From the IMG/VR virus record IMGVR_UViG_2675903060_000003, positions 1-64,000 of that record: a DNA stretch of 64,000 nucleotides; one strand, given 5' to 3'. Each line of letters opens with the position of its first letter. The first letter of the stretch is position 1. The notes beneath the pieces were generated by a model. The model saw only the letters and a program-made list of their open reading frames with translations. It ran no database searches and was not told the origin of the DNA. The position numbers and the translations under genes were made by a program. Positions 22,132 to 50,053 of the stretch are shown here, piece after piece. The DNA comes from a virus. Its lineage: Duplodnaviria > Caudoviricetes.

Positions 22132-22144
22132 CGCGGACGCCTCC

Positions 22145-22396
22145 TTAACTCAGGTTGATGTGGACGTCCCTGCGCTGCCTGCCGTGGCCGTCTGTTCGCT
22201 CGGTCACCCGGTTGCCGAGTTGGTCGATGACCCGCTTGAACCGACCGCCGTCGGCGGTTCGGCCCTCCCTCACCTGGTCACGGGTGACCCAGGTCCGATC
22301 GCCGACGACCACGTCAGCGGTGCGCCCCTCACCGAGAGGCGCACCACCGCGCATGTGCTCGCCGAACGTCTCGCCGCTCTCGGGATCCCAGGGCAT
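22145..22396 (-). CDS. Small protein, paralogue of 49763-50053
   Basis: DQVREG...KRVIDQLGNRV...DVHI; GGAGG upstream. Confidence 0.7.
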   Translation of the reverse strand: MPWDPESGETFGEHMRGGAPLGEGRTADVVVGDRTWVTRDQVREGRTADGGRFKRVIDQLGNRVTERTDGHGRQRRDVHINLS

Positions 22397-30054: not shown

Positions 30055-31194
30055 CTACAGGTTCTCGATGGCCTCGACCCAGGCGGCGAGATCGCCGGAC
30101 GGGTCGAGTTCCTTCGACCGCTGCAGGGCCCGCCCGGACGCGGCCGACCACTCCGCAGGGTCGTCGAGCGCCCGCAGGGACGCCTCCCATGCCTCGACGT
30201 CGCCCGCCTCGCAGAAGATCCCCGCGTCTGCGAGGCTTTCCGACAGGCCCGGCGTAGGCGTCGCCATGACAGGGATCCCGGACGCGAGCGCCTCGACGCC
30301 GACCCGGCCCCACGACTCGACGTGGGACGGCACCAGCAGGACTCGGGTACGGGCGTACACCTGATCCCGCATCTGGTCGCCAGGAACTTGCCGGATCACC
30401 TCGACATTCGGCAGGTCACGCACGATCTGATGACCGTAGGCGCCCTCGACGGCGAGGAACCGATGCTCGGGCAGGCGCGCGGCGAGCTTCCAGAACAGGT
30501 CGCCGCCCTTCTCCCGGTTCAGATTGATCATCGTGATCAGATCGCCGGGAGTGGTCGCGTAGTCGGCGGCGAACACCGGCGGCCTCACCACCAGCGTCTT
30601 CGACGGCTTGAGCCACTTCGGCCGCTCCGCAAACAGCGCCTCGGCCTCCGCCTGCAAGTGCATCGAGTTGTAGACCACCAGCGCCGTCGACCCAGCCGCG
30701 ATGTTCTTGAAGATCACCGGAGCCGGATTGTGCGCCAACACCACGAACGGGATCCCGTAGCCGCGCGCCAGCGCGCCAGCGGCAGGCACGTTCTCATACT
30801 GGCTGACCACGACGTCCGCATGCCGCACCGCCGAACCGAAGTCGAGGCGGGCCGCCAGCGGAATAACCATGATCCCGTCCACGTGGTACGGGTCGCGTGC
30901 CTTCCCGTAGCGGGACAGCCACACCTGCACGTCGTGGCCGCGCTCGGCGAGCGGGCGCAGCATGGAGAACAGCGCCCACTCGCCGCCAGCGTTGTGATGC
31001 GGTGGCGCCGAGTGGATGCGGACGACGATCCGCTTCGGCCTGTCGGCCTTCCCCTGAAGGGCAGGCATCTCGGCCGGGCCGGCAGGTGCCGCGGCCGACG
31101 TCTGGACAGGCTCGGCAGCCGGCTTCGGCGGCCTAGCCTGCCGTGGCCGCTTCGGCGGAGGATCGCCCTCCGCCGCCCTGCGACGCGGCGGCAT
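30055..31194 (-). CDS. GT-B (GT4-like) glycosyltransferase
   Basis: AGGE, KGG, ESWGRVGVEALASGIPV motifs; start overlaps the capsid stop. Confidence 0.9.
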   Translation of the reverse strand: MPPRRRAAEGDPPPKRPRQARPPKPAAEPVQTSAAAPAGPAEMPALQGKADRPKRIVVRIHSAPPHHNAGGEWALFSMLRPLAERGHDVQVWLSRYGKARDPYHVDGIMVIPLAARLDFGSAVRHADVVVSQYENVPAAGALARGYGIPFVVLAHNPAPVIFKNIAAGSTALVVYNSMHLQAEAEALFAERPKWLKPSKTLVVRPPVFAADYATTPGDLITMINLNREKGGDLFWKLAARLPEHRFLAVEGAYGHQIVRDLPNVEVIRQVPGDQMRDQVYARTRVLLVPSHVESWGRVGVEALASGIPVMATPTPGLSESLADAGIFCEAGDVEAWEASLRALDDPAEWSAASGRALQRSKELDPSGDLAAWVEAIENL

Positions 31195-32150
31195 CAGGAG
31201 ATGTAGCCGTTCGTCGTGTACTTCACGAACGCCTCGACGTCGCCCACCACGAAGCCGTAGTACGCCTCCGCGAGCAGCAGCACCAGGTTCTCCTGGAACG
31301 CCGAGTGGACGCCGCCCTCCTCGTCCACGTACGTCGCCTCGGACGAGATGCGGACGGTGATGTCCATGCCGACGCCATAGGCGGCCTGCGACCAGTCGCC
31401 GCCGATCGCCCGCAGACCCGAGTCGGTCGAGGTGGACTGACGGCGGTGCTTACCCGACACGGCCCGCGAGTAGGCGAGCGGCTCACCGATGAGCGTGCCC
31501 GCGGACGCGGCGTTCGTGCCCGGCGTGGTCGTGTCCACGAAGATGGGTCGGCCGTTGGTGTCGGTGGCCAGCATGAGCTGCGGCTTCAGACGCGGGTCGG
31601 CGGCGGTGCCGGTGAAGTCCCAGTCGTCGTCCACCACCTCAGCCATACCGTTGACCAGGTCGGCGTAGATGCCGCCGTTGGCCTGGGAGGTGGTGCCGAG
31701 CTCCTGCCACTTCGTCGTCTCGATCAGGTAGTCCGAGAACGGGCCGGCGGCGCCCTTCATCGTCTTGCCGTGGATGGCGGCGTAGTCGAACGCGCGGGCG
31801 AACGCGGTCGGCAGGTCGGCCTGAAGCTGCGTCCACAGACCGGCCGCGTTGGTGTTGACGACCTCCTCCGCGACCGGGATCAGGACGGCGAGCTTCTTCG
31901 CGGTCATCTGCTTGACGTCAATGCCGCCCGAAGACAGCGGCTTACGGGCGCCCTGGCCGACCCAGTCCGCGGTCGGGACGTCGAGCGGCACGGGGATGCT
32001 GGTGGTGGCGTCGATCGCCAGCGGCGCACGACGCGCCAGCGACATGATCGCCGACTGCTCGACGCTCTTCTCGAAGATCGGCCCCGTCAGGGTGCGGGGC
32101 AGAAGAGCGTCGTTGAGGTCAGAGAGCTTGATCGGCTCGGTGACGGGCAT
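31194..32150 (-). CDS. Major capsid protein (HK97 fold)
   Basis: KKLAVLIPVAEE, GGDWSQ, FQENLV motifs. Confidence 0.95.
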   Translation of the reverse strand: MPVTEPIKLSDLNDALLPRTLTGPIFEKSVEQSAIMSLARRAPLAIDATTSIPVPLDVPTADWVGQGARKPLSSGGIDVKQMTAKKLAVLIPVAEEVVNTNAAGLWTQLQADLPTAFARAFDYAAIHGKTMKGAAGPFSDYLIETTKWQELGTTSQANGGIYADLVNGMAEVVDDDWDFTGTAADPRLKPQLMLATDTNGRPIFVDTTTPGTNAASAGTLIGEPLAYSRAVSGKHRRQSTSTDSGLRAIGGDWSQAAYGVGMDITVRISSEATYVDEEGGVHSAFQENLVLLLAEAYYGFVVGDVEAFVKYTTNGYIS

Positions 32151-33691: not shown

Positions 33692-35105
33692 CCGCGGCCT
33701 CCGGCTCAGCCTCGCGTCCATGTGCCGCACGGCGGGCGGCGAGCTCGTTGCCGAGGTCAGTCAGCGCCTGCCGGCCCTGTGCGCGCCGTCGGTCTGCGTG
33801 GACCCGGCGCCGCTGCCCCTCGGTCAGGCCGACCATCTCCAGCGTGACGTCCGAGTCCGCGGGAAGGATGCCCGCCGCGACCAGCTTTGTCGCAGCGTCG
33901 GTCTGGCTGGCCATCGTCGGCGTGGCCGGGTTGCGCCACACCGTTTCGATGCGGCGGGACCGGTCAGGGAGGTCCCCTGTCTGGATCAGGATCGCGAGGC
34001 GGAACACCTGGCTCCATGGCGTGTTGAACAGCGTCTGCTTGCGCTCGGCGCGCTTCACCAGTTGAGCTTCGGTCGAGCGGATCGCGTCCGCCGACGCCGG
34101 ATTGTCCGTGGTGTAGCCCAGGTAGTGCGGCGGCAGGCCAAGCTGGGTGGCCATGATCCGCGCGTACATGTCGATCATCCGCGTGTACACGGACGGGTCG
34201 TAGGCGGCGAACTGGCCCACGGTCGGGACCTCGCCGTCCTCGTCCCGCTCCAGCGCCAGCACGCGGCCCAAATAAGCTTCCCAGGCGCTCTTGGCGTTGC
34301 CTTCGGCGTCCTGGAACGCCGACTCGGACGCGCCGAGGATGTACCGCTGGGGGGCGCCGTAGAACTCGCGGGCGACCTCCATCCCCATCAGGGTTCGGCA
34401 GGCAGCGTCCGTGATGGACATGACCGCGTTCGTGATCTCGGATCGTCCGATCCGGTCCGCCGTCCGCTGACGGTTCGAGATCCGCACCACCGGCGGCAGC
34501 CCGAGTCCGTGGTCGTCGCGGTCGATGACCTCCCAGCCGGAGTTCGTCGCCACCACGTGGATGGACGAGTTCGGCAGGTACAGCACCGCCGCATCCTGGT
34601 CTTCGATCTTGTACAGGCGCAGCCCGCTCGTGACGGCGCGGGCTCGGGCGTCGTAGAAGACCGTCATGTCCAGCGGCGACTCGATCGAGATCAGCGGCGG
34701 CATGTCGGCGTCCTCACTCGACCCGACCGCCGCATACGACCGGCCGTAGATCAGCGAATCGAGGTGCGCGAGCTGCGACTCGGCGACCAGCTCATTCGCC
34801 TCCGCGATCTCTTCCAGCTCGGTGGAATCGTCTGGCGCGTCCTTGTACCGCCACGCTTCGACGTCGAGCCGCTGCTCCAGCGCGTCCACACCGATCTGAG
34901 GCCACCCAATGACGGTGTGCAAGCCCTTGAGCTGCGGCGGGATCGAAATCCCCAGGTCGCGGATGAGCTGCTCGCCGTTGTAGTAGCAATCCCGCAGCTC
35001 CAGGTCGAAACGGCGCGATATCAGTTCGCTCCGCAGCACGCCGAGCAGCGCCGCCTCGTCGTCCGTCAAGGTCAGCAGCCCCAGCTCGGGAATCGTGACG
35101 GTCAC
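33666..35105 (-). CDS. Portal protein (SPP1 gp6-like)
   Basis: YYNGEQ, GRSEI, PQRYILG, NPASADA motifs. Confidence 0.92.
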   Translation of the reverse strand: MTVTIPELGLLTLTDDEAALLGVLRSELISRRFDLELRDCYYNGEQLIRDLGISIPPQLKGLHTVIGWPQIGVDALEQRLDVEAWRYKDAPDDSTELEEIAEANELVAESQLAHLDSLIYGRSYAAVGSSEDADMPPLISIESPLDMTVFYDARARAVTSGLRLYKIEDQDAAVLYLPNSSIHVVATNSGWEVIDRDDHGLGLPPVVRISNRQRTADRIGRSEITNAVMSITDAACRTLMGMEVAREFYGAPQRYILGASESAFQDAEGNAKSAWEAYLGRVLALERDEDGEVPTVGQFAAYDPSVYTRMIDMYARIMATQLGLPPHYLGYTTDNPASADAIRSTEAQLVKRAERKQTLFNTPWSQVFRLAILIQTGDLPDRSRRIETVWRNPATPTMASQTDAATKLVAAGILPADSDVTLEMVGLTEGQRRRVHADRRRAQGRQALTDLGNELAARRAAHGREAEPEAADDAAVEGR

Positions 35106-36760
35106 CGCAGCACCACCGCCCGCCCTTGTCCTCTGCGACCCAGACCCTTGGAGATGGCGTCGAGACGTGCCTGCCACGCCAGCATGGCCGCGATGGCGGC
35201 GTCGATCTTCCGCCGTGATGTCGGATGCTCTTTTGCGATCGTCAGCCCCGACCTCGACGGCCGGCGGCGAGCGTTCAGCATGTGGCGGGTCAGCGCGAAC
35301 GACCCGTCATGAGAGAGCTCGCCGTTCACGATCGCCGCGTGCAGCTGCTCCAACGCTCTGACGACCATGTTGGTGCGGTTCATCCACCACTCGATCGGGT
35401 GATTCTGCGACGACCGCACCCGCAGCCGCCGCCCGTACGTGTACTCCCAATCCGCGACGTACGACCGCCAGTCCGCGGCCGGGTCTGCGTAGAAGCCCAC
35501 CACCCGGTAGCGCTGGAAAGCGGACCGGACTGCGGCCTCGACTTCCGGGATCGGCACCCACCAGTCGCGGCCTGCAGCGCCGTCCGGCTGCTCCCACACC
35601 GCGACCTCGAACAGGTGCCCGTCGCTGACGCGGCAGCCGATCAACGCCGTGGCGTCCGTCACCCCACGCTCGCGGTGCCGGGAACCGTCGAACCCGAGCG
35701 TGATCCGCTCCCCGTCCGCGACCACCTTGGAGGCGTCCACGCACGCTGCCCACTCCGGCTGAGACAGCCACGAGTCCGATGCGTGCGTGACCTGGTTGCC
35801 GTAGTACTGGCGCGACGATTCGGGCGTCGTGGCCGGGTCGTGAATCTCGGCGACGATCCGGTCCAGGTCCACCCAGCCGCGACGCTCGCACGGCGGCTCG
35901 TGGATGCGACACCCACCCGGCAGGTTCGCCGAGTCGCCGTAGGCGTAGGCCAGCCCGTTGTACAGCGACCCCGGATCCGACATGTCGGTCTCCGGCGGCC
36001 ACTCCCGGTGGTCGTACAGCAGACCCTCATCCTTGGCTCTACCCTCCAGGATCTGCTGCAGGTACTGGGCGGACGCCTCGGCAACCGACTCCTCACCGGG
36101 CACGTAGGCGTTCGGAGCTTCGATCGATGAGCCGCCGGTCTTGCCCAGGTTCCGGCGCAGCGTCGCCGCGAGCCGCACCCCGCCGTTGACCGGCATCCAC
36201 GACTCGGTCTGGTCGAGACACACATGCACGGGCCGGTTGCCCTCACGGCTAGTCGCCGCGGCGGTCACGAACTCGATCCGGCCCTTCGGCAAGGCGACGA
36301 ACGTGTCCATCGGGTCGAGTCCCGGATAGGCGTCCATCACCGGGCCCTCGCGGAGCATCTCCAGCAGCGGCGCCCACGCGTTCTTCGTCTGGTCCTCGCT
36401 GGTGGCCGCGATCTGCACCCACGGGGTGCGGATGTCCGACCATGGCCGGCCCACGGGCTGCCCGTCGGCGTCCCAGCCGTCCGGGACGACGGGCCCCATC
36501 CCCTCGGCGGCGCAGATGGCGCTCAGCAGCGGAGACTTTCCCGCGCCCTTCGGCCGGCTGTAGACGGCACGCCGGTAGCGCCGCTTACCCGTAACCGGGT
36601 TGATCTCGTAGAAGGCCAGGACGAACGCCGCCTGCTCCTTCGTCAGGATCAGCGGCTCGTACTCGCTCCGGTCAGGTGCCGCGAGATGGTCCTCAATCCA
36701 CGCCAGGACCTCCCAGCCCAGCGTTGGCCGCTCTCCGGGGTACGACGGACGCCACGGCAA
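35102..36760 (-). CDS. terL: Terminase large subunit
   Basis: RPKGAGKS Walker A, LGFDGS nuclease, KIDAAIA; TTG start with GGAGG. Confidence 0.95.
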   Translation of the reverse strand: MPWRPSYPGERPTLGWEVLAWIEDHLAAPDRSEYEPLILTKEQAAFVLAFYEINPVTGKRRYRRAVYSRPKGAGKSPLLSAICAAEGMGPVVPDGWDADGQPVGRPWSDIRTPWVQIAATSEDQTKNAWAPLLEMLREGPVMDAYPGLDPMDTFVALPKGRIEFVTAAATSREGNRPVHVCLDQTESWMPVNGGVRLAATLRRNLGKTGGSSIEAPNAYVPGEESVAEASAQYLQQILEGRAKDEGLLYDHREWPPETDMSDPGSLYNGLAYAYGDSANLPGGCRIHEPPCERRGWVDLDRIVAEIHDPATTPESSRQYYGNQVTHASDSWLSQPEWAACVDASKVVADGERITLGFDGSRHRERGVTDATALIGCRVSDGHLFEVAVWEQPDGAAGRDWWVPIPEVEAAVRSAFQRYRVVGFYADPAADWRSYVADWEYTYGRRLRVRSSQNHPIEWWMNRTNMVVRALEQLHAAIVNGELSHDGSFALTRHMLNARRRPSRSGLTIAKEHPTSRRKIDAAIAAMLAWQARLDAISKGLGRRGQGRAVVLR

Positions 36761-36773
36761 GGGAGAACCTCCC

Positions 36774-37238
36774 TCACGCGTTCTCTGCGGCTCCATCGGG
36801 GCGGTTCACACCGGGCAGAACCCGCAGATCCCCGTAACGCTGGCGGGCCGTCTCCTGCACGGGTGGCCGCTTGGAGTCCTTCTCGTCGGCGTCGGCGAAG
36901 ACGAGCCGGAGCCTTGCGCGATCTTCAGGGGTGGCGCCGAACTTGGCCACCCGTAGCCGAACCTCGGCCGCGAGCGTCCACTGCCCCTTGGACCACATGG
37001 CGTCGTGCATGAGCGCGGTGTCGAGCAGGAAGTACCAATCCGACTCGATCATCACTTCGGCTTGAGGCGACCGCTTCCACATCTCCCACCATGCGCGAGT
37101 GCGTGGATGCCAGTCGATCTCCTCAGGGAGATCAGGCGGCTCCGCCTTCTCGAAGCGCAGCACCGTCTGCGGAACAGGATCAGCATTCGTACGAGCCCGC
37201 CGATGCGCCGGCTTGGGTGCAGGGCCACGACCAGCCAC
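36774..37238 (-). CDS. terS: Terminase small subunit
   Basis: GRGPAPKP, EVRLRVAKFGATPEDRARLR. Confidence 0.9.
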   Translation of the reverse strand: MAGRGPAPKPAHRRARTNADPVPQTVLRFEKAEPPDLPEEIDWHPRTRAWWEMWKRSPQAEVMIESDWYFLLDTALMHDAMWSKGQWTLAAEVRLRVAKFGATPEDRARLRLVFADADEKDSKRPPVQETARQRYGDLRVLPGVNRPDGAAENA

Positions 37239-39956: not shown

Positions 39957-40269
39957 CGGCGTCCTCTCGGCGTGAGGGTTGGAAGCCTTCGCGGAATCGA
40001 TCAAGGGGAATCTCTTCGCCGGAGGGCATCTCCACGAGGTCATCGCCAAAGAGAAGGCGGACTACCGGCACGCCGAACACTGTCGCGAGCAAGACGATCT
40101 CCATGAGTGACACAGGGCGTCGAAGGGTCTCCAGCTGTGTGACCCTGTTCGGTGTCCAGCGCGCACCTTGGGCGCACATCTGGCGCGCGAGGTCGGCCTG
40201 CGTCCACCCCTGCTGTTCCCTCAGCTCCGCCATATTGCGGGCAATGACGTGCTCCAATCGCACGGCCAC
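39949..40269 (-). CDS. XRE-family HTH regulator
   Basis: LREQQGWTQADLA...VTQLE. Confidence 0.8.
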   Translation of the reverse strand: MAVRLEHVIARNMAELREQQGWTQADLARQMCAQGARWTPNRVTQLETLRRPVSLMEIVLLATVFGVPVVRLLFGDDLVEMPSGEEIPLDRFREGFQPSRREDADA

Positions 40270-40396
40270 GTTGCGTCTTCTCCTCGTGATGGGCGAGAGC
40301 CCGGCGCACGAGGACGCCGGGCTCTCTACCTCCAGGAGCTACCTGGAGGGTTCTAATGGGGGCAGTGCAGGCGTGCGTCTGCGGGATGATGAAGCC

Positions 40397-40681
40397 ATGG
40401 GCATGCAGATCATCAAGCAGCCGTCCGGCCAGTTCGCCATCTTCGACTCCGTCACGGACACGGTCATCGTCTGGGACGCAACCGAAGAGGAGGTCGTCGA
40501 GTACTTCGCCGAACGGGCCGCTGACCGCGCTCGCGAAGATGCCCGCCGCCAGGTCAGCCACGTCGCCGCAGGGAACCCGCGCAAGGCGTACTTCCAGTTC
40601 GCCATGACGTGGGATGAGGCGCTCACCAAGGATCGGAAGCATGGCGGCACAGCGTGGAAGGAGTGCCAGCAGCGTGGATGA
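40397..40681 (+). CDS. Hypothetical protein, inverted orientation
   Basis: MGMQIIKQPSGQFAIFDSVTD... Confidence 0.65.
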   Translation: MGMQIIKQPSGQFAIFDSVTDTVIVWDATEEEVVEYFAERAADRAREDARRQVSHVAAGNPRKAYFQFAMTWDEALTKDRKHGGTAWKECQQRG

Positions 40682-40698: not shown

Positions 40699-41007
40699 CT
40701 ATCTGATCCCGGGGTGCCGTTCCGGCGGCCTCCGCATCCGTCCTTGCTTGTCCGCCTTTGCCTTGCCGCCCTCGGACGACGACTTGTAGACGTGGCACCG
40801 CTGGGCGGTCCGGAGCCCGTGGATGGGCCTCAGCACCTCTATGCGGTGGTCGGTGCGGTCGCCGAGGTGGTCCACGTCCGTCGCCCCCGGCTCCCCGCAC
40901 ACGTGGCAGGTGTCGCCGTACACGCGGAAGCACTCGGCGCGGATTTCTGGCCAGTCGGTCGGCAAGTCTGCCGAGCGGTCGTGGCCTGCCCACTGTGCGT
41001 TTGCCAT
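40699..41007 (-). CDS. HNH endonuclease (packaging-associated type)
   Basis: CHVC...DVDH...CH..KS, PERHPG. Confidence 0.85.
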   Translation of the reverse strand: MANAQWAGHDRSADLPTDWPEIRAECFRVYGDTCHVCGEPGATDVDHLGDRTDHRIEVLRPIHGLRTAQRCHVYKSSSEGGKAKADKQGRMRRPPERHPGIR

Positions 41008-41705
41008 CAGCCCACGCCCAAGCTTGCGGCGCGCTCCGAGATCAGTGCCCGGATCGCTGCCCCGTCCCCGGCTGCGTCCATGTACCGCTGGTAGAGGGCG
41101 ACGGCCTGCTCGTACGCCGGTCCTGTCTTCGCCGCGGACTGGTGGTGCAGGGCGTACACGCGGCCTTCGTGGCGCACGGGCTCTGCGCCGAGGAGCGTGC
41201 GGTGGCTGATCAGCCACGCCACGTCCTCCGGAGCCCAGCCGAGGAAGCGCTCGTCCTGCCCGCCGCACGCCCACCACGTCTCCAGCGAGGTTACGTACAC
41301 GCCCGAGGTGGCTGCGGGCACCACCAGATGGTTGCAGCGGTCAAGCGGCGCCCCGCGCCGGTATTGGGCTGTGCCGTCCGCTCTTAGCGACCGGTACTCG
41401 GTGTACGGCAGATGCACCCGCCCGCTGACGGCTGCGCCTTCGACCGCCGCCAGCAGCGGCTCCCTCTCGGGCAGCGTGTCCGCGTCGCCGAGCACCACCA
41501 CGTCCGCGCCGGACTCCTCCGCCAGCCGGACGCCCCGGTTGCGGCAGGCGGCCAGACAGAACGGCTCATGCCCGGTGTCCACATCCACGATCTCGACGCC
41601 CGGCAGCAGCTCCCGGTAGCGGGCCACCGTCAACCGGTGGGCGAGCACACGGGACGGCTGAGGTCTCCACGGGATCACGACCAGCACCCGAAGGTCAGTA
41701 GTCAT
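41007..41705 (-). CDS. GT-A glycosyltransferase (GT2/GT7-like)
   Basis: VVIPWR, DAD, GGQDERFLGWAPED. Confidence 0.85.
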   Translation of the reverse strand: MTTDLRVLVVIPWRPQPSRVLAHRLTVARYRELLPGVEIVDVDTGHEPFCLAACRNRGVRLAEESGADVVVLGDADTLPEREPLLAAVEGAAVSGRVHLPYTEYRSLRADGTAQYRRGAPLDRCNHLVVPAATSGVYVTSLETWWACGGQDERFLGWAPEDVAWLISHRTLLGAEPVRHEGRVYALHHQSAAKTGPAYEQAVALYQRYMDAAGDGAAIRALISERAASLGVG

Positions 41706-42360
41706 GCCCTGCCCTTTCGTGCCCGATGTGCGTCACCAACGGCGTATCGTCACGGCGGCCCCAGTACGCGCCGCGCGCCTTCGGGTCGGTGAACAGTTCC
41801 CGGCCGAACCTCGACTCCGACCAGTCGCCCTCAGGCCACGGCCGGCGCAGCGTCGAAGCGGGGATGAGGGACGGGTTGCCGGTGAAGCAGGCCCGGTGCT
41901 CAATCCACGAGTAGGTGTCCTCCGTGCGCTGCTGGAAGAGGTTGCCCTGCGCCTCCAGCGCCTCGATCAACCCGCCGCGCTCGCGCTCGTTGTGGAACCA
42001 CGGCTGGCGCACCAGGGCAACCTGTGTCAGGTACGGGTGGCCATCCAGCACTGTGGCGAGGTCGGCGGCGTCAAGCGGCTGGTTGAGGACGAAGTCCTCC
42101 TCCCAGAAGAACACCCAGCGGCAGCCTGCGGCGGCCTGCCAGACACGGCGCATCGCCCGCCAGTACCCGGCCCGGTCTTCGGCGACGGGGACGACCTCGG
42201 CCGTGAACTCGGCTTGCAGCCAGTCCCGGTAAGCAGCGTCTCCGGAGTCGTCCACAATCAGCGGCGACCCCACACCGGACAGGTTGGCGCGGATAGACGC
42301 GAGCGCCTGCGTGATGCAGTCCTTACGCCCGTTGCCGAGGACGATCAGTGGAACCGACAC
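41695..42360 (-). CDS. GT-A glycosyltransferase (GT2-like)
   Basis: IVDDSG, FWEEDF, NPSL, HIG. Confidence 0.8.
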   Translation of the reverse strand: MSVPLIVLGNGRKDCITQALASIRANLSGVGSPLIVDDSGDAAYRDWLQAEFTAEVVPVAEDRAGYWRAMRRVWQAAAGCRWVFFWEEDFVLNQPLDAADLATVLDGHPYLTQVALVRQPWFHNERERGGLIEALEAQGNLFQQRTEDTYSWIEHRACFTGNPSLIPASTLRRPWPEGDWSESRFGRELFTDPKARGAYWGRRDDTPLVTHIGHERAGHDY

Positions 42361-42399
42361 AGGCGACCGCCTCTCTCGCCATGCGAGGCGGCCGTCGCT

Positions 42400-42672
42400 C
42401 TATTCGTGCTGGTAGAACTCGTAGATGTGAGCGCCGTCGTCAGTGACCGAGCCTGTAGGCCGATAGTCCGCGACGGGCATGTGTGAATCCCAAGGGTCCG
42501 CATACTCGAATGTCGTCAGCGGCCTAGCCTCGGGCTGTCTCCACATGGGCGGAAGCTCGTGCCAGCGAAACCTCGTCCCGTCGTCGCCATTCGGTCCACG
42601 CAACTCGATCAGGAATGGCTTGTCTGCCCAATCCTCGCGATTGAACTTCGACAGGGCATTCACATCGTCCAT
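42400..42672 (-). CDS. Hypothetical protein inserted in the GT cluster
   Basis: Lower GC; LRGPNGDDG. Confidence 0.55.
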   Translation of the reverse strand: MDDVNALSKFNREDWADKPFLIELRGPNGDDGTRFRWHELPPMWRQPEARPLTTFEYADPWDSHMPVADYRPTGSVTDDGAHIYEFYQHE

Positions 42673-42679
42673 CGTCCCA

Positions 42680-43549
42680 TTATGCCGTGAGGGTGCGCCT
42701 CACGCCCTCCTCGATCGACACCTGCGGCTCGTAGAAGCCGAGCATGCGGGACGGGTCGCACACCCGGTAGGCGACGCCTGCGGGGGCGTCGGGACGGTAG
42801 GTGAAGGAAGGGCTGTACCCGGCCTCCGCGGTGAACAGCTTCGCCAGGTCCGTCATCGACGTCGCCAGGCCAGTGCCGAGGTTGACCGGCCCGTCCACGC
42901 CGTACTCCCACGCGGCCAAGACGGCGCCCACGATGTCGGACACGTGGATCCAGTCGCGCGTCTGGGTGCCGTCGCCCCAGATCGTGAACGGGTCTTCCCG
43001 GCGGTTGGCGCGACCTTGGAAGGCTCCGAACGGGAACCGCTCGCCCTGGTCCTCGCCGTAGCCGGAGAACGGGCGTAGCACCGTCACCGTGCCGCCCTGC
43101 TGCCGGTAGCTGGCCGCCAGGTGCTCGCCCGTGAGTTTCAGCCAGCCGTAGATGGCGTCCGGCTGCTCCGGCGCGTCCAAGCTGATGTGGTCCTCGCGGA
43201 GGCGGACCGACAGGCCAGGCTGCTGCAGCGACATCGGATAGGCGGCCGACGACGAGAAGTACACCACCCTGCCGGGCTTGGCCCGCAGCGCCCATTGGAA
43301 CATGGCGGCATCGAGCTCAAGACAGCCGGCGCCCACGGTCAGCGGTGAGGCGTCGATCGCGGAACGGTGAGGCTCGACCGCGGCGCAGTGCGCCACCAGG
43401 TCGAAGCGGGCGCCACCATGCCGGAACAGGTTGAGCGCGTCCCGCCCGTCCGTGATGTCGACGCCGGTCACGTCATGGCCGAGGTCTGACAGGGCGGCCG
43501 TGAGGTGGCGGCCGATGAATCCGGCCGAGCCGGTGACGAGCGCTCTCAC
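42680..43549 (-). CDS. NAD-dependent nucleotide-sugar epimerase/dehydratase
   Basis: TGSAGFIG, SSSAAY, YGWLK, GDGTQTRDWIH. Confidence 0.93.
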   Translation of the reverse strand: MRALVTGSAGFIGRHLTAALSDLGHDVTGVDITDGRDALNLFRHGGARFDLVAHCAAVEPHRSAIDASPLTVGAGCLELDAAMFQWALRAKPGRVVYFSSSAAYPMSLQQPGLSVRLREDHISLDAPEQPDAIYGWLKLTGEHLAASYRQQGGTVTVLRPFSGYGEDQGERFPFGAFQGRANRREDPFTIWGDGTQTRDWIHVSDIVGAVLAAWEYGVDGPVNLGTGLATSMTDLAKLFTAEAGYSPSFTYRPDAPAGVAYRVCDPSRMLGFYEPQVSIEEGVRRTLTA

Positions 43550-43552
43550 GGA

Positions 43553-44227
43553 TCACACCCTTAAAGCGTCTGCGGGGATACGGAGGGTGCCGTCGCCGTT
43601 GAAGCCCTGGCCGACGAACCGGCCTGGCGTGCGCGGTGTCGGGAAGTCGCGTTTGTCGTCGAACCCGTCCGGCTCGAACTGGGGGCTCTCGGCGCTGGTG
43701 TGGACCATCAGCGACTGTCTCGCCAGCGGGTACACCTGGTGGGCCAGCCAAAGCTGGTCGGCCTGCCACCGTTCCACGCCGGCGTGCTTCTCCGGCAGGA
43801 GCCGGGCCGCTGCCGCGGCGCCGTCCCGTCTGGCACCCCACATCCCAGCCAGGATCGGCATGCCGTGCTCCGGGTGGTCCCGCATGGCGTGGAACTGCCT
43901 GCCGGACGCCAGCCATTCCTTAACGGCGGCGCGCTCACGCTCGCACGGGCGGGAGTCCGCGTCGCGGAACAGCGTCACCTCGTTGCCGTCCCGCAAGGCG
44001 TGGAACCGCCAGAACGTCGACCACCAGTCCTCCGAGGCCCCAACCATGCGGACGATCCCGGCGCCCTGCTGGGCGAGCTCGCCGACGACGTGGGACGGGA
44101 TGGAGTCACCGACATAGAAGCGGCACACGAAGTCGGGGTAGAGCTCGGCGCACAGGCGGACGTTCTCCACCGCGCCCACCCGGTACAGCTCGTCCGGGCC
44201 GAACAGGCTGAACGAGATGACCTTCAC
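43553..44227 (-). CDS. Putative GT-A fold glycosyltransferase
   Basis: ISFSLFG, WRF, RDADSR (DxD), MRDHPEH, AGMWG, DQ.WL. Confidence 0.7.
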   Translation of the reverse strand: MKVISFSLFGPDELYRVGAVENVRLCAELYPDFVCRFYVGDSIPSHVVGELAQQGAGIVRMVGASEDWWSTFWRFHALRDGNEVTLFRDADSRPCERERAAVKEWLASGRQFHAMRDHPEHGMPILAGMWGARRDGAAAAARLLPEKHAGVERWQADQLWLAHQVYPLARQSLMVHTSAESPQFEPDGFDDKRDFPTPRTPGRFVGQGFNGDGTLRIPADALRV

Positions 44228-44907
44228 CCGAGCAGTGCTTTCAGCTTGTCGACGTCGCCGGGCATGCGGTGCTCCAGCCAGGCGGCGTAGGCGAGCCGGT
44301 CAGCCTCGGCGGCGTCCGCGTTGTTGACCTCGCGGTAGCGGTCGTCCTCGGCGGCCTTGCCGTTGAGGTAGTGCTGGTGCTCCACCACCACCCGCGGCAG
44401 GTACCGGATCCGGTCGATCGCCCGGCCGAGGTCGAGCCACACGTTGTCGGCCCACAGGTGCAGGATCCCGTCCGGCACCATCCAGCCGAGCGCCATCACG
44501 ATGTCGGACGTGACCGCGACCTGAGTGGGCAGGCGTTCGCCGGCCAGCAGGTCGTTGCCGTAGACGAAGCCCGTCCCGAGGTCGCGCAGGGCCGCCAGGT
44601 AGTGCTCGTCCCAGCCGCGGGTGCGGGGCCGGTGGTCGTCGCCGAGGAACCCGATCGCGAAGTGGTGGGGGGCGTGCTCGACGGCGACCTTGTTCAAGGT
44701 CGGGCACATGCGCAGCCGCGGACCCACGGTCAGGGCGATGCCGCGGTCGGCGCACACCTGCCGGTAGTCATCGAGAGTGGGGTCGTCGTCGTCGACAGCA
44801 ACAAGCAGACCGGTGGGGCCGGTGGTGGCCGCAGTCCAGGCGTCATGCAGGTCGGCGATGTTGTGCGGGCGCCCACGCGAGGGGACGATCACCAGCAGGT
44901 CAGGCAC
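44224..44907 (-). CDS. GT2-like glycosyltransferase
   Basis: VIVPSRGRP, VDDDD, LGDDH, EHQHY. Confidence 0.85.
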   Translation of the reverse strand: MPDLLVIVPSRGRPHNIADLHDAWTAATTGPTGLLVAVDDDDPTLDDYRQVCADRGIALTVGPRLRMCPTLNKVAVEHAPHHFAIGFLGDDHRPRTRGWDEHYLAALRDLGTGFVYGNDLLAGERLPTQVAVTSDIVMALGWMVPDGILHLWADNVWLDLGRAIDRIRYLPRVVVEHQHYLNGKAAEDDRYREVNNADAAEADRLAYAAWLEHRMPGDVDKLKALLG

Positions 44908-44917
44908 GGCACCCCTC

Positions 44918-45220
44918 TCACGTGATGTTGATAGGGCCGCTGCGGATCAACGGCTCTTCCTGGGCGGTGACCGGTTTGACCCAGATCACGTACTTGCCTT
45001 CGTTGAGGGTCCCGATCCCGGTGTCGCCGCCGTACATGGCGCGCACAGTGCCGGTGGCGGTGTGCCATTCGGCCTCATGCCATACGTCGCCGTCCCTCTC
45101 GGGCTCCACGTCATACGGCATGACCGCCATGTAGACCGGCGTCGTGGGCGTGTACGTGCCCGTCACCACGCCAGAGTGCATCCACTCCTTAGTGCCAGAC
45201 GGGTAGCAGGGGATGCTCAC
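44918..45220 (-). CDS. Small beta-rich structural/adaptor protein
   Basis: WHEAEW...GKYVIWVK...EEPLIRSGPINIT; follows the repeat protein. Confidence 0.7.
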   Translation of the reverse strand: MSIPCYPSGTKEWMHSGVVTGTYTPTTPVYMAVMPYDVEPERDGDVWHEAEWHTATGTVRAMYGGDTGIGTLNEGKYVIWVKPVTAQEEPLIRSGPINIT

Positions 45221-45236
45221 GAGGACCACCCCCTGC

Positions 45237-48200
45237 TCAGCGTCGTATCGGCGCGGTCGCGGACCACCTGCGGGGGACTGGATCGCTCGTGCGCCAACCT
45301 CTGGCTGGCGCGGTAGCGGACCATTGCCGGTGCGTCGGCGGGCCGATCGTGATGTCGATCTCCTGCGGGAGGTCTCCCGTCGACACGGACGGCGTCGGAA
45401 TCGACGCGACCGCGGCCACCGCGGGCGGTCTTGCTGTGGTGGACAGCAGCGCCGCGGGGATCGTGGCGTACGCCTGGACCGCTGCCGGAGTAGCAGCGAC
45501 CAGGATCGTGGTGGTGGGTGTAGGTACCGCGGCAGTAGCCAGGACGATCGCGGGTTGAGCGGTGATGCTCGTCCCGGTGGACGGTCCCGGGATAGCCGCG
45601 GCGGCGTTGACCGTCTGAGGGGTGGCGGTGGCATTGCCGCCGGCCTCGACAGTCGGCGCCGGGATGTTCGCGTCCGCCTGGACGGTGTCCGGGGTGGCGG
45701 TCGCTCCGGTCGCTGCGGTCGGGCCGGGGATCGCCGTGGACGCCCCTACGACCTCCGGAGAGGCCGTAGAAGAGGCGGACACCTCAGGAACGCCTACGGA
45801 CGCCTCAGAGGCGACTACAGGCGCGCTCGCGGTGGTCCCAGCCGAGACGTCCGGCTCCGGGATGGAGGCGGACGCCGCGACAGCGCCGGGTGTCGCGGTC
45901 GCCCCCGCCGAGGCGGTGGGTGCCGGGATCGTGGCGGTAGCGGGGACTGTCGTGGGCGAGGCTGTGGCGTCCGAGACCAGAAGGCCGCCGACGTTGTCCC
46001 AGACGACGGTGGTGTCCGCGCCGACCGCCTGCCAGGCCCCGGCCTGGAGGATCAGCCGCGTCGAGGTGACCGTGATCGGGGTCGCCTCGGAGTGCAGCTC
46101 CGCCCAGGAGGAGCCGTCCGGGGACGCCTCCCAGTAGGTGGTGCCCGCGTCCTCCCGGATGCGGAGCCAGCGGTGATCTGCCGGGCTGTAGGAGTGGAAG
46201 GCGAGGCTGGACTGGCTGCCGGAGACGACCTTGTAGATGCCGACGAATCCGCCCGCGATGACGAAGAACAGCCGGTTGATGGCGTCGGCCTCGACGATCG
46301 CGTAGACCTCAAGGCCGGTGGCCTGCGAACCGGCGTCGACCAGCTCGACCGCGAAGGCGCTGCCGGTCAGGTCGTAGGTGCCGGCGCTGGCGATCTGGCT
46401 GAACGCGACCGCCGAGCCGCTGATCTCGAACTGGTAGACGTCGTTCTGGCTGCCGGTGACGCCCGCGTTGTTGGTCGCTGTCCACAGGGCCGTGTCCAGC
46501 GTCGTCCCAGTGAAGGTGTCGCGGAGCTCGGATGCCGGAACGATACCGCCCGACACGTCAGGGGCCGGGACCGACGCGGACGCCTGGACGGTGTCCGGTG
46601 ATGCCGTGGCGCCCGCCGATGTGGCAGGCTCCGGGATGTCGGCCGTCGATTCCACGGCCGCTGGGGCAGCCGACGAGCCGGCGCCTGCTTGCGGTGTCGG
46701 GATGGTGGTGGTCGCCGAGACCACGCCAGGGCTCGCAGTCGCCCCGGCGGTCGAAGTAGGCGCTGGAACGCTGGCAGTGGCCTCGACGACGTCTGTGGTG
46801 GCCGTGGAGCTCGCGGAGACGTCGGGCGTGTCCACGGAGCTGGTGGCCGTGACCGGTGCAGGAGTAGCCGCTGTGACGGCGCCGACCGCCGGGGCGGGCA
46901 CCGACGACGTCGCCTGTACGACGGACGGGGCCGCGGTGGCGCCGGCACCCGCAGTCGGGGCCGGGACGGTCGTGGAGGCGGTGACGATGCTCGGGGAGGC
47001 GACGACCTCGGCCAGCACCGAAGCCTCAGGGACGGACGCGGTCGCCTGCACCACGGAGGGTGAGGCGGTGACGCCCGCCGTGACAGACGGGGCCGGCACC
47101 GACGACTGTGCCTGGACGACCGCGGGCGAGACGGTAGAGCTGGTGCTCGCGGACGGCGCCGGCACTGCGGCCGAGGCCGGAACGATCGCAGGTGAGGCGG
47201 TGGAGCCGGTCGTGACCGTGACCGACGGCACCGAGACCGACGCGGTGGCCACCGTCGGCGAGGCGGTGGAGCCCGCTGACGTGGTGGGTGCCGGGACGGT
47301 CGCTGTTGCGGGGGCGACGCCCGGCGTGAGAGTCGACCCGGTGGAGATCGTCGCCGACGGCACCGACGTGGTGGCTGCGACGACGCCAGGAGCAGCCGTA
47401 GCACCCGCCCCGGCCGTAGGAGCGGGGACGCTGGCTGATGCCGACACCACGCCCGGAGAGACGGTCGAGCCCGCGCCGGTACTGGGAGCGGGAACCGATG
47501 CCGTGCCCGCCACCACTGACGGGGTGGCGGTGGCGTCCTGGCTAGACGGGGTGGCACCCGCGATGCCGATCGTGTGACCGGCAGCGAAGACGAGCGACGC
47601 CGAGGGGGTGAAGTTCGCGGTGCTCGTCGGCGTCGAGCTGGACAGGGTGCGGGTGGCGAGCGTGGAGGTGACGTAGGTGGTGGACTGCAGGTCCGCCTGC
47701 TCGCTGAGCCCGCCGGGGGCGGTCCAGGAGACAGAACCGGGAGCAGTCGGGACACCCGTCGCGAACCGCAACTCCACGCTGTTGGCGGCGGGAGGGGTGA
47801 TGCCGGGCGTACCGATCGACGTGCCCGAGCCGGACGTCTCCTGCACCGTCGGCGTGGAAGTGGACGCGCCCGAGTAGGCGGCGATGATCACCGTGCCGTC
47901 AGCCGAGGCGTCCTGGGAGAAGTCCCACGACGTGGGCTCGCTGCCTCCTGCGATCTTCCAGTAGATGACGACCTGTAGGGCGTTCTCGCCCGCCGTGTAC
48001 GTACGCAAGACCTGCCAGGTGGCACCGCCTGTGGGGGTGCCCATGTCGTCGAGGGTGCCGACGTCAGCCGAGTGGTGGGCGACCAGCAGGTCGCCGGAGA
48101 CGACACCCGTCGGCTTGGTGGCGGTGAGCGGCGTCGTCCTCCCCGCGACGGACGTCACAGTGCCGCGCAGGACAGGCGGTGAGGCCGGAGCGGAGCCGTC

Positions 48201-48962
48201 CGACACGCTCGGAGCCGGAATCGACGCCGACCCGGTGACGACGCTCGGGGTGGCCGTGGCCGACGCCGGAGCCGACACCGACGGGGCAGGAACCGACGAC
48301 GTCGCGGCCACCACCGAAGGGGTGGCGGTCGCGTCCGTGCCGCCCCCGGACGGCAGGAAGACCGTGAACCCCAACCTGGACACGATCGCGCCGGACGCCA
48401 GATGGTTCTGGGCGCCCGTCGCTGCATTCGAACTAAGGATCTTGTACGCGGCCTCGGCATGCGTGAGCCACCCATGGTTCAGGTCCGCGCCAGCAGGCTC
48501 GGTGTACGTCGAAGGCGGGGCGAATGTCCGCGCGTTACCGTCGCCGTCCGCGCCAGCGAACCTGATCTCGATACCGCTGCTGCTGGATGGGGTGACGGTG
48601 GGCGTCTGGACGTTGTTGCCCGTCCCGGCGCTCACGCTCCCGTACACGCCGGGAAGGGCAGCCCCGGACACACAGATCAGGATCGCAACCGACGACGCCC
48701 CGGCATGCGCGACCGAGTACGTGGTCGGCTCCGACCCAGTCGCGGTTTTCACGAACGTCCGGCCACGCGTGTACGTCTGGCCGCTGTTCATGCTGGACGC
48801 GAGCGTCCACCCTGACGGGGTTGTGATGTCGGTGGCGTTGCCGCTGTCAGTGAAAACCGCCAGAACCAGCACATCGCCCGAGACCACGTCCGAGGGGCGG
48901 GCGATCGTGTAGCCGCCGTTCGCGTTGCTCGCCGTGCTGTGGGAGCGGTACGCAGCAACCAC
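45237..48962 (-). CDS. 1241-aa Ser/Thr/Pro/Ala repeat-rich fibre-like protein
   Basis: Two copies of a beta domain, ~26 x 22-aa repeats and one lectin-like domain; no signal peptide. Confidence 0.85.
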   Translation of the reverse strand: MVAAYRSHSTASNANGGYTIARPSDVVSGDVLVLAVFTDSGNATDITTPSGWTLASSMNSGQTYTRGRTFVKTATGSEPTTYSVAHAGASSVAILICVSGAALPGVYGSVSAGTGNNVQTPTVTPSSSSGIEIRFAGADGDGNARTFAPPSTYTEPAGADLNHGWLTHAEAAYKILSSNAATGAQNHLASGAIVSRLGFTVFLPSGGGTDATATPSVVAATSSVPAPSVSAPASATATPSVVTGSASIPAPSVSDGSAPASPPVLRGTVTSVAGRTTPLTATKPTGVVSGDLLVAHHSADVGTLDDMGTPTGGATWQVLRTYTAGENALQVVIYWKIAGGSEPTSWDFSQDASADGTVIIAAYSGASTSTPTVQETSGSGTSIGTPGITPPAANSVELRFATGVPTAPGSVSWTAPGGLSEQADLQSTTYVTSTLATRTLSSSTPTSTANFTPSASLVFAAGHTIGIAGATPSSQDATATPSVVAGTASVPAPSTGAGSTVSPGVVSASASVPAPTAGAGATAAPGVVAATTSVPSATISTGSTLTPGVAPATATVPAPTTSAGSTASPTVATASVSVPSVTVTTGSTASPAIVPASAAVPAPSASTSSTVSPAVVQAQSSVPAPSVTAGVTASPSVVQATASVPEASVLAEVVASPSIVTASTTVPAPTAGAGATAAPSVVQATSSVPAPAVGAVTAATPAPVTATSSVDTPDVSASSTATTDVVEATASVPAPTSTAGATASPGVVSATTTIPTPQAGAGSSAAPAAVESTADIPEPATSAGATASPDTVQASASVPAPDVSGGIVPASELRDTFTGTTLDTALWTATNNAGVTGSQNDVYQFEISGSAVAFSQIASAGTYDLTGSAFAVELVDAGSQATGLEVYAIVEADAINRLFFVIAGGFVGIYKVVSGSQSSLAFHSYSPADHRWLRIREDAGTTYWEASPDGSSWAELHSEATPITVTSTRLILQAGAWQAVGADTTVVWDNVGGLLVSDATASPTTVPATATIPAPTASAGATATPGAVAASASIPEPDVSAGTTASAPVVASEASVGVPEVSASSTASPEVVGASTAIPGPTAATGATATPDTVQADANIPAPTVEAGGNATATPQTVNAAAAIPGPSTGTSITAQPAIVLATAAVPTPTTTILVAATPAAVQAYATIPAALLSTTARPPAVAAVASIPTPSVSTGDLPQEIDITIGPPTHRQWSATAPARGWRTSDPVPRRWSATAPIRR

Positions 48963-49024
48963 ACCGACCCCCGGACATGCGAAAGCCGCCCGGAGGCGGC
49001 GACGTCAGGCGGCGTTTGCGCTGG

Positions 49025-49477
49025 TCAGGCGGCCAAGGTCAGGGCGAAGATCCCGCTCGCGGACCAGGAAATTACGAGGCTCCCGTTGGACGTGGAGTAG
49101 TCGCTTCCCAGGTTGACCAACACTATGGCGTTGTTGCCCGCCAGAGCGTCCGCGTAGATGAGCGCGCCCTTCGCCCCCGTGATGGTCGAAGACGACCAGG
49201 TCACATCGGAGGCGTCGAACGTCGCCACGCCACCCGACCCGGTGAACGTCGTACCCGTCAGCAGCGCGCCGCCGGACGTGTACCCGGTGCCGGACACCTC
49301 GTTGGCGTTGTACGGGGAGACGCCATAGGCGGTGTCCGTGGTGAAGTTCGGCGTGGTGAGACTGTTCGTGAAGAGGGCGACCTTGTGCGTTTCCAGGTCG
49401 AGGTCGAGGGCGAGTTGAGTGGTATCCAGCACGTCAACGAACGTGCTGACGTACAGGCCCGATGCGGAGATGGCCAC
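49025..49477 (-). CDS. Structural protein, paralogue of 21664-22131
   Basis: HKVALF, NEVSGTGYTSGG, FDASDVTW. Confidence 0.85.
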   Translation of the reverse strand: MAISASGLYVSTFVDVLDTTQLALDLDLETHKVALFTNSLTTPNFTTDTAYGVSPYNANEVSGTGYTSGGALLTGTTFTGSGGVATFDASDVTWSSSTITGAKGALIYADALAGNNAIVLVNLGSDYSTSNGSLVISWSASGIFALTLAA

Positions 49478-49479
49478 GG

Positions 49480-49773
49480 TTACGCCCCCTCAACCTTCGA
49501 AGTGACGTCCGCCTTCACGGTGTCGGACGGGGACGGGTCGGGGCTGCCGGGCTCCACGTAGGCGTCGCCGCCCACCGACACGCCGTCGGAGCGGGTGTTC
49601 TGCCGGTGCTCGCGCAGCGCCTCAGCGGCGGCCTGCTTGCGGTCCTTCGCCTCGTCGGAGGAGTCGGCAGCGTAGGCGTCCTTCGCTGCCTGGAGTTCGT
49701 CGAGAAGCCGCTTCTCGACCTCGGTGGCTTCGATCTGGCTGCGGAGTGAGGCCAGCCGGTCGTCAACCGACAT
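49480..49773 (-). CDS. Small coiled-coil protein
   Basis: GGAGG RBS. Confidence 0.7.
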   Translation of the reverse strand: MSVDDRLASLRSQIEATEVEKRLLDELQAAKDAYAADSSDEAKDRKQAAAEALREHRQNTRSDGVSVGGDAYVEPGSPDPSPSDTVKADVTSKVEGA

Positions 49774-50053
49774 CGCCCACCTCCTTCTTCTGTGGTGAGC
49801 GTTGGATGACGGCGTGCACGGTTTCGGGGCTTTTGATGTGGACGGACTGCTGGTCGCGGCCGTGCTGGACGACCCGGTTGCCGAGTTGGTCGGTGACGTC
49901 CTTCACCCGGCGTCCGTCCTTGCCGACGTACTCGCGGGCCTGGTCGTGGGTGGCGTGCGTCCATCCGCCGGCGCGGACCTGGAGACCCTTGGAGCGCAGC
50001 CACGCCCCGTAGGAGCCGTGGCGGTCGGGGTCGTACTCCTCCCGCATCACCAC
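49763..50053 (-). CDS. Small protein, paralogue of 22145-22396
   Basis: DQAREY...KDVTDQLGNRV...SVHI. Confidence 0.75.
   Translation of the reverse strand: MVMREEYDPDRHGSYGAWLRSKGLQVRAGGWTHATHDQAREYVGKDGRRVKDVTDQLGNRVVQHGRDQQSVHIKSPETVHAVIQRSPQKKEVGDVG

Follow-up and report, generated by a model that had tools for sequence, protein, structure and literature searches.

A putative accessory fibre module beside a candidate virion glycosylation cassette in a siphovirus-type prophage

Glycosyltransferases (GTs) encoded by phages can reportedly modify capsids as well as tail tubes (Freeman et al. 2023, as cited in PMC10877033; Cell Host Microbe 31:1216, also cited in PMC11256854). In mycobacteriophage Che8, gp111 and then the HNH gene gp112 come after the GT genes gp108–110 at the right genome end, and gp108 encodes a GT-methyltransferase fusion. 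The capsid and tail-tube proteins of Che8 reportedly accept the O-glycans at their C-termini. Here, a 64,000-nt stretch of DNA (the window; G000:C19:155618-219617) from a 10-Mb genome with ~68% GC in 40 contigs was compared with such systems. The window contains a siphovirus-type prophage, which runs from ~14 kb to the window end with nearly all genes on the minus strand. Its host would be a Streptosporangiaceae-like actinomycete, because the best protein matches are from Nonomuraea. Directly upstream of an HNH endonuclease gene, in the slot ahead of the packaging genes, the prophage carries a fibre gene set followed by a block of sugar genes (the cassette; Table 1). We favour, with a probability of about 0.55, the reading that these represent two modules: an accessory fibre module and a Che8-type virion glycosylation cassette whose targets would be virion proteins.

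In this two-module reading, the first module (50053-44918) would be an accessory fibre set consisting of two small proteins, a beta protein of PHROG 644, a 1241-aa fibre, and a ~100-aa partner. The globular domains of the fibre would be borne on stalks of 22-residue beta-strand repeats, and its Arg/Trp-rich end would be matched to the downstream partner, which is taken as a chaperone or attachment adaptor. The second module (44907-41007) would be a Che8-like glycosylation cassette of soluble enzymes that act in the cytoplasm, in which an enzyme of the short-chain dehydrogenase/reductase (SDR) type may supply a modified sugar nucleotide. The four cassette GTs, together with a fifth GT beside the capsid gene, may then decorate virion proteins with O-linked glycans in the late phase of infection, ahead of lysis. 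We see no categorically new system here, but a putative virion glycosylation cassette of a known kind plus an accessory fibre module.

The cassette resembles the Che8 genes in that soluble GTs lie at the genome end ahead of an HNH gene (after which the window continues to the terminase), and methyltransferase partners occur, in relatives of the window cassette and, in Che8, as the gp108 fusion. On the other hand, only GT41705 among the four window GTs belongs to a Che8 family, and the other three are not of the gp108 or gp110 families. Che8 gp109 falls in phrog_1721 (E 9e-114), the PHROG common to GT41705, and direct blastp of the two proteins gave 24.6% identity over 199 aa. Compared with Che8, the window adds an SDR epimerase and a GT4 gene beside the capsid gene; moreover, the element is a prophage of a Streptosporangiales-like actinomycete and has a fibre set beside the cassette.

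Three further systems are comparable in part. GT42360 and GT41705 form a tandem pair. About 200 Bxz1/ScottMcG-type mycobacteriophage records, as well as Gordonia phages, carry this pair in the same order, and the window proteins are 31-41% identical to the 'galactosyl transferase' pair of such phages (Bxz1, ScottMcG, and others; Trax gp121/123). Taken alone, GT42360 shows 37-41% identity with the so-named genes of Gordonia phages and of mycobacteriophages of the Cluster C1 type, and it shares its PHROG with gp121 of the Gordonia phage Trax. Unlike in the window, those pairs lie among non-structural genes, and we know of no test of their function. In the fold of its N-domain (TM 0.7-0.8), the 1241-aa protein is like those minor tail proteins of actinobacteriophages that have receptor-binding domains in modular form (Hawkeye, MooMoo, Gaia, Tweety, and others). 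It differs from them in having its gene upstream of the terminase and outside the tail module, two N-domain copies plus a third globular domain, ~26 stalk repeats of 22 residues, an Arg/Trp C-terminus, and a cognate ~100-aa partner. Serine-rich repeat adhesins with dedicated cytoplasmic GTs (GtfA/B) and flagellin O-glycosylation (e.g. FlmG; PMC7591256), in which Ser/Thr-rich structural proteins receive their glycans in the cytoplasm from soluble GTs with genes close by, provide a working analogy only. There is no homology to these systems and no export machinery in the window; in addition, the window repeats are position-specific 22-mers rather than low-complexity Ser-rich tracts, and the linkage between substrate and GTs is not conserved.

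The probable fibre protein and its companion genes

Codon-position GC and frame plots (GC content at third codon positions, GC3, 0.85-0.93) confirmed that every gene named in the original prediction, which was made from the DNA letters alone, exists on the minus strand where it had been placed, although one ORF of 90 aa inside the cassette had been overlooked. The position of the region upstream of the terminase and outside the tail module was likewise borne out, with HNH, TerS, and TerL next in order. The 1241-aa protein is composed mainly of A (19%), T (15%), S (13%), V (10.5%), and P (9%), and has an ortholog of equal length and 75% identity in Nonomuraea bangladeshensis. It consists of three globular domains set apart by ~26 copies of a 22-residue repeat with the consensus (A/S)-T-A-(S/T)-P-x-V-V-x-A-(T/S)-A-S-V-P-A-P-(T/S)-V-S-A-G. 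The positions P5, V8, A10, V14, P15, P17, and G22 are fixed, Ala/Val alternate with Ser/Thr, and each unit contains six positionally conserved Ser/Thr. Tandem Repeats Finder detected no DNA tandem repeat across the units; the DNA copies are too diverged for this program, and the repeat pattern is therefore considered to be kept by selection on the protein.

The protein had initially been described as mucin-like, and this description did not hold. The position-specific 22-mers and the globular domains rule out a low-complexity mucin identity, and the repeats look structured rather than mucin-like, as judged from their sequence pattern. The Nonomuraea ortholog is named 'beta strand repeat-containing protein' at NCBI. 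Repeats of this type also make up the C-terminal portions of numerous proteins that have GH5, DUF4038, subtilase, DUF4082, or LamG domains and no signal peptide. The repeat thus looks like a reusable stalk of phage fibre or depolymerase proteins, if, as we presume, those proteins are of phage origin.

Evidence for a virion fibre also comes from the globular domains. Domains A and A' belong to the same family, and blastp matched both to the N-terminal 200 residues of the Tal-like minor tail protein encoded in the tail module of the same prophage (33% and 38% identity, respectively). An AF2 model of A', built with 42 homologues in the alignment, showed two beta-sandwich halves with a pLDDT of 96.8. 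In BFVD, the model matched many phage proteins (E 1e-10 to 1e-5, TM 0.7-0.8), including annotated minor tail proteins of the mycobacteriophages Hawkeye, MooMoo, Gaia, Shauna1, TChen, and Tweety, and a Foldseek search of the same model against the PDB gave nothing significant. In VIA-align comparisons with the PDB, the C-terminal half resembled jelly rolls of the receptor-binding protein (RBP)-head and TNF/C1q-like types (Tuc2009 RBP head, Z 7.5; Pgp3, Z 8.0; PRD1 P5, Z 6.0) and the N-terminal half carbohydrate-binding module (CBM) and collagen-binding sandwiches, although Z values in this range (<=8) are only suggestive. An exhaustive HMMER search for the N-domain yielded 1201 cluster representatives at E<=1e-3, in which the domain occurs alone, at the N-terminus of ~600-aa Tal-like proteins, or repeatedly, with as many as six matched segments, in proteins of great length. 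The paralogy with a tail protein and the fold matches to minor tail proteins led us to regard the 1241-aa protein as very probably a modular virion fibre, and its three globular domains are probably carbohydrate- or receptor-binding.

The central domain shares 26-32% identity with segments of Streptomyces phage proteins that carry the annotation minor tail protein or glycoside hydrolase. A Laminin_G_3/ConA-like label for this domain was dropped, as Pfam did not recognise it and assigned no family. Other searches with the fibre were negative: NCBIfam contained no family for it or for the GT-like genes, PDB sequence searches with the fibre, g49477, and the GTs returned noise only, and a scan of the genome contigs with the N-part of the fibre found no confirmed relative. 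Long plus-strand ORFs overlapping the 1241-aa frame were judged to be antisense artefacts.

The C-terminus of the fibre appears to be linked to the gene that follows it. A hidden Markov model (HMM) of the g45229 family found a member directly downstream of W-motif fibres in many prophages. Fibres of differing heads and repeats share the C-terminal motif type ..DITV..G.P.R.W(S/T).G.P in one to three copies. The Arg/Trp tail type also ends otherwise unrelated fibres of G118, G090/G143, G045, G000:C9, L039, L040, L048, and L078 (G-numbers denote genomes of the family sample, n=201; L-numbers denote loci that were read, including IMG/VR loci), and each of these fibres is then followed by a g45229-family gene of ~95-105 aa. 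This includes the G118 and G090 fibres, which have Asp/Ala-type repeats and yet bear the Arg/Trp tail. Fibres with xLGG tails (G188 and G136) are followed by a different family of ~112 aa, phrog_1084, two members of which are 41% identical; the N. bangladeshensis ortholog also ends in xLGG motifs. As the tail type and the downstream family co-vary, we argue that fibre and partner are cognate, and g45229 is a probable assembly chaperone or attachment adaptor of the fibre. A screen for Trp-Trp tails proved too noisy for counting fibres. A second prophage of the same genome (G000:C9, L031 3830-6159) has a fibre set upstream of its terminase with no GT cassette; the set encodes a protein of 183 aa, an N-domain fibre of 487 aa that ends in an RxW tail, and a partner of 99 aa.

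Two of the three small genes at the head of the set have paralogues in the tail module. The protein containing DQLGNRV is paralogous to the product of 22145-22396 (blastp, 38% identity, E 2e-9) and is conserved in G188, G009, and G118. The 150-aa protein g49477 is paralogous to the product of 21664-22131, between the tape measure and Dit genes (39% identity, E 7e-22), and falls in viral-only clusters of the ESM Atlas; it is a candidate fibre-associated structural protein. Its AF2 model was poor (pLDDT 58), and a BFVD search with that model gave nothing at E<=0.001. The 97-aa charged protein has a homologue in G188 and no family match. A hairpin between g49477 and the fibre gene was no better than in shuffled sequence (z -1.26). 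Separately, the C-terminal 60 residues of g49477 share 51% identity with gene 6 of MiniFlayer, a Streptomyces satellite phage, and 42-49% with genes of the Gordonia phages GMA1 and Guey18.

The sugar block and its relatives

The four cassette GT-like genes differ in how well they can be assigned (Table 1). DxD-like motifs are present in GT44907, GT44227, and GT41705, and GT42360 has DDSGD instead. GT41705 matched Pfam Glyco_tranf_2_2 at 16.6 bits, below the cut-off of 27.3. In the ESM Atlas, GT44227, the start of which overlaps the stop of GT44907, lies nearest to viral clusters named 'hexosyltransferase' or 'putative glycosyltransferase' (0.98); a GT8 lead scored 0.92. The epimerase assignment is firm at the family level (PF01370, 123 bits vs a cut-off of 20.9), and the motifs GSAGFIG (GxxGxxG) and YGWLK (YxxxK) are both present. 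Its best NCBIfam match was GDP-L-fucose synthase, with 62 bits, far under the cut-off of 500. The 90-aa ORF has a homologue of 49% identity in the same place in L039. The original prediction that the repeat protein has no signal peptide and that no flippase or GtrA accompanies it was upheld; the cassette proteins likewise contain no signal peptide, no flippase-like membrane span, no membrane-spanning GT, and no GtrA-like gene product.

A fifth GT gene, of the GT4/GT-B type, lies beside the capsid gene, and its ATG overlaps the capsid stop. The encoded protein has a Pro/Ala/Arg-rich N-terminus of ~50 aa. In G118 (74% identity) and in the IMG/VR loci L048, L070, L078, and L090, the gene likewise follows the capsid gene.

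A pattern scan of IMG/VR with GT44907 found at least 589 related stretches, and the gene content of the 80 best loci was inspected. The GT44907 homologue was accompanied by an epimerase in 74 of the 80 loci, by class-I methyltransferases in 55 and 46, and by an additional GT in 33, and a capsid gene lay just upstream in 27. The core of GT44907 and epimerase, which is far more widespread than the tandem GT pair, mostly occurs without fibres of the window type, often right after the capsid gene. GT44907 homologues are also encoded by Streptomyces and Arthrobacter phages, those of Streptomyces phages adjoining sugar nucleotidyltransferases. In some relatives of the cassette (L035 6216-7348; L037 10647-11204), one or two class-I S-adenosylmethionine (SAM) methyltransferase genes lie between the GT and the epimerase; GT44227 occupies that place in the window and in the IMG/VR locus L040. 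In a related IMG/VR prophage with a 74% identical capsid protein (L070 6906-9985), two proteins bearing SGNH/GDSL-hydrolase-like motifs, and no fibre set, occupy the position upstream of the GT cassette.

Linkage of the two blocks and possible targets of the cassette

The original prediction joined the two blocks into one self-contained system, in which the 1241-aa repeat protein would be the dedicated substrate and the GTs would coat its Ser/Thr-dense repeats, building a heavily O-glycosylated appendage. The components themselves, namely soluble GTs, an SDR enzyme, and a fibre-like protein in a late operon, were recovered. Several arrangements are also consistent with such a link, in addition to the six conserved Ser/Thr per repeat. 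Three prophage lineages place the cassette beside fibre sets: the window; the related prophage of G118 (capsid 89% identical), in which the cassette directly abuts a fibre set with a different fibre; and G090/G143, in which, in a different slot, the capsid gene is followed by GTs, a methyltransferase, and an epimerase, and then by three fibre genes. In G156, the cassette follows the capsid gene and the partner gene is ~9 kb off. When the g45229-type partner gene was used as the marker for fibre sets among the 201 family genomes, five of the six genomes bearing GT44907 also carried the partner gene, compared with ~0.5 expected by chance, although these genomes are kin and not independent.

The co-occurrence expected for a dedicated system was nevertheless not observed. 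The 99%-complete genome G188, the closest relative and of the same genus, has the DQLGNRV protein, the coiled-coil protein, the PHROG-644 protein, a 956-aa fibre (61% identity over the N-terminal part, the same repeats, Ser+Thr content 0.28), and a 113-aa gene, followed by the HNH gene. No GT or epimerase lies between this fibre set and HNH, and no GT44907 or GT42360 homologue was detected in the genome; the block 41007-44907 therefore behaves as an insertion or deletion. Fibre sets upstream of the terminase without GTs are also present in G136, G045, and the G000:C9 prophage, and in G009 the stretch that was read contains a fibre set and no GTs. The partner gene was found at 19 places in 18 of the 201 genomes. 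Five of these places share a prophage with GT44907, and for the other 14 no GT44907 homologue was found in the genome. Conversely, the partner gene lay within 10 kb in only 8-9 of the 80 IMG/VR cassette loci, all of the pre-terminase type. The fibres adjacent to the cassette in G118 and G090 have repeats that are not of the Ser/Thr/Pro type, and the Ser+Thr content is equal with and without GTs (0.21-0.28 in cassette-adjacent fibres vs 0.20-0.28 in the others). Together with the structured appearance of the repeats and their presence in many fibre and depolymerase-type proteins that lack a cassette, these observations make a dedicated system unlikely. The comparison of gene content across genomes indicates that the fibre set and the sugar block are independent modules that often lie side by side, and that the cassette is neither dedicated to nor needed by the fibre.

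In the two-module reading, the fibre could be one substrate among the virion proteins, and it is a plausible acceptor of glycans. We tentatively consider that the fixed Ser/Thr of the stalk repeats might serve as built-in acceptor sites, so that the neighbouring cassette would coat the accessory fibre with glycans; the cassette would then be an optional 'plug-in' glycosylation module added by some actinomycete prophages to a common fibre set. We regard this extension as rather unlikely.

As to the targets, the GT block is best read as virion glycosylation. The location in a late structural operon, the soluble enzymes, and the absence of a flippase favour the modification of virion proteins over that of the host envelope or DNA. 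Some points nonetheless weigh against this reading. The GT activity and the GT-A fold of the four cassette proteins are predictions, and GT44227 had no match in Pfam, PHROG, or NCBIfam. The capsid protein ends in ...KYTTNGYIS and the tail tube protein in ...APEVDEVSS; neither has an extended Ser/Thr tail, and Che8-type acceptor sites are therefore not evident. In G025 (L038, G025:C248), a GT44907 homologue lies beside ESX/type VII secretion-like genes, which encode small WXG100-like proteins and membrane proteins with several spans; this is a non-phage context. In addition, the Trax homologues of the GT42360-GT41705 pair lie among DNA-metabolism genes.

The chromosomal ESX neighbourhood of the G025 homologue would fit a different target, the host cell-envelope glycoconjugates, which the GTs and the epimerase might modify for lysogenic conversion, superinfection exclusion, or remodelling at lysis. 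The element is a prophage, and sets of GT and epimerase, with or without a methyltransferase, resemble genes of cell-wall glycan biosynthesis. However, the cassette has no membrane-spanning GT, flippase, or GtrA-like gene, and it lies within the late operon, where genes overlap or abut tightly and where consensus scans of the region detected no promoter of the sigma-70 type and a lower number of terminator-like sites than in shuffled sequence. Elsewhere, the core pair of GT and epimerase sits between capsid and connector genes. We consider envelope modification improbable, more so than a dedicated fibre system. Least probable is glycosylation of hypermodified bases of phage DNA as an anti-restriction measure: GT44907 matches the N-terminal part of PHROG 2675, labelled DNA methyltransferase, and homologues lie beside sugar nucleotidyltransferases in Streptomyces phages and, for the tandem pair, among the DNA-metabolism genes of Trax, but the PHROG label probably stems from GT-methyltransferase fusions such as Che8 gp108, the block is located beside structural and packaging genes, the presence of several GTs with an epimerase points to an oligosaccharide and not to one sugar on a base, and no base-hypermodification gene was seen in the cassette by Pfam, PHROG, and NCBIfam searches.

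Prophage setting and implications

The HNH gene that follows the cassette has a counterpart of 42% identity in the same place in G118, and a megablast search of the region against phage genomes gave no match. Tape measure and Dit genes are usually adjacent. In the window, four small genes (20433-22396; 83, 155, 156, and 231 aa), two of them paralogous to the fibre-module genes as described above, lie between the two, and this layout recurs in G118 (L026); they may encode collar or baseplate accessory proteins. Two plus-strand genes interrupt the minus-strand order. The one at 28799-29353, within the head-tail region, encodes a SHOCT-like C-terminus (..ITREEFEQQKAQIL..) and is probably a moron. 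For the other, at 40139-40681, the true start is probably an internal ATG, and its C-terminal ~95 residues (MGMQIIKQPSGQFAIF...) have a homologue of 96 aa in the prophage of G118 (L035 12177-12467). The G118 gene shares the strand of its neighbours, which indicates that the window homologue is inverted.

Table 1. Features of the fibre set, the sugar block, and the late operon in the window
Feature	Position	Strand	Support or remarks
96-aa protein containing DQLGNRV, first fibre-module gene	49763-50053	(-)	GC3 0.88
97-aa charged, probably helical protein	49480-49773	(-)	GC3 0.89; GGAGG ribosome-binding site
g49477, 150-aa all-beta protein, PHROG 644 (function unknown)	49025-49477	(-)	phrog_644 E 1.9e-16
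1241-aa modular fibre protein (putative)	45237-48962	(-)	GC3 0.85
Domain A, residues 1-205	48348-48962	(-)	33% identical to Tal-like protein residues 8-160
Repeat block 1, residues 211-254, 2 copies of 22-residue unit	48201-48332	(-)	
Domain A', residues 263-470, two beta-sandwich halves	47553-48176	(-)	38% identical to Tal-like N-domain
Repeat block 2, residues 477-806, 15 copies of 22-residue unit	46545-47534	(-)	
Central globular domain, residues 808-995	45978-46541	(-)	
Repeat block 3, residues 999-1196, 9 copies of 22-residue unit	45375-45968	(-)	
Arg/Trp-rich C-terminus, residues 1197-1241	45240-45374	(-)	..IDITIGPP..RQWSA..RGWRT..RRWSA..
g45229, 103-aa fibre partner	44918-45229	(-)	HMM of g45229 family
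GT44907, GT-like gene 1, 227 aa	44224-44907	(-)	phrog_14945 glycosyltransferase E 7e-46; DDDD motif
GT44227, GT-like gene 2, 224 aa, weakest assignment	43553-44227	(-)	ESM Atlas; DAD motif
Extended-SDR sugar-nucleotide epimerase/reductase, 289 aa	42680-43549	(-)	PF01370 E 1.5e-35; phrog_540
90-aa ORF inside cassette	42400-42672	(-)	GC3 0.74
GT42360, GT-like gene 3, 221 aa	41695-42360	(-)	phrog_3047 E 1e-27
GT41705, GT-like gene 4, 232 aa, Che8 gp109 family	41007-41705	(-)	phrog_1721 E 4e-23; DAD motif
HNH endonuclease, first gene after cassette, packaging region	40699-41007	(-)	sequence motifs
Probable TerS	36774-37163		
TerL	35102-36796		
Protease and portal	between capsid and TerL		
Major capsid	31194-32150		
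Fifth GT, GT4/GT-B type	30055-31194	(-)	Glycos_transf_1 E 4e-13, Glyco_trans_4_4, phrog_26352
Tail tube	27391-27975		
Tape measure	22428-26510		
Tail-module paralogues of first and third fibre-module genes	21664-22396	(-)	blastp
Dit	19348-20421		
Tal-like minor tail protein, 609 aa	17505-19334	(-)	phrog_1885 over residues 232-598; N-domain paralogous to fibre domains A and A'
Endolysin	15008-15814		

To our knowledge, only a few mycobacteriophages have as yet been shown to have glycosylated particles. The spread of the cassette in IMG/VR, with at least 589 stretches carrying the GT, or the GT and the epimerase, mostly in late structural operons, suggests that the trait is much wider among actinomycete phages and commoner than documented. 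The locus described here provides a concrete, inducible test case for particle glycosylation. The fibre set in turn points to a widespread modular architecture, in which the RBP-like double beta-sandwich domain with its many representatives is combined with 22-residue stalks and with C-terminal motifs that have cognate small partners; this architecture could help in annotating host range and in engineering actinobacteriophages. If the fibre is indeed glycosylated, it would represent a new class of acceptor and the first glycosylated phage fibre.

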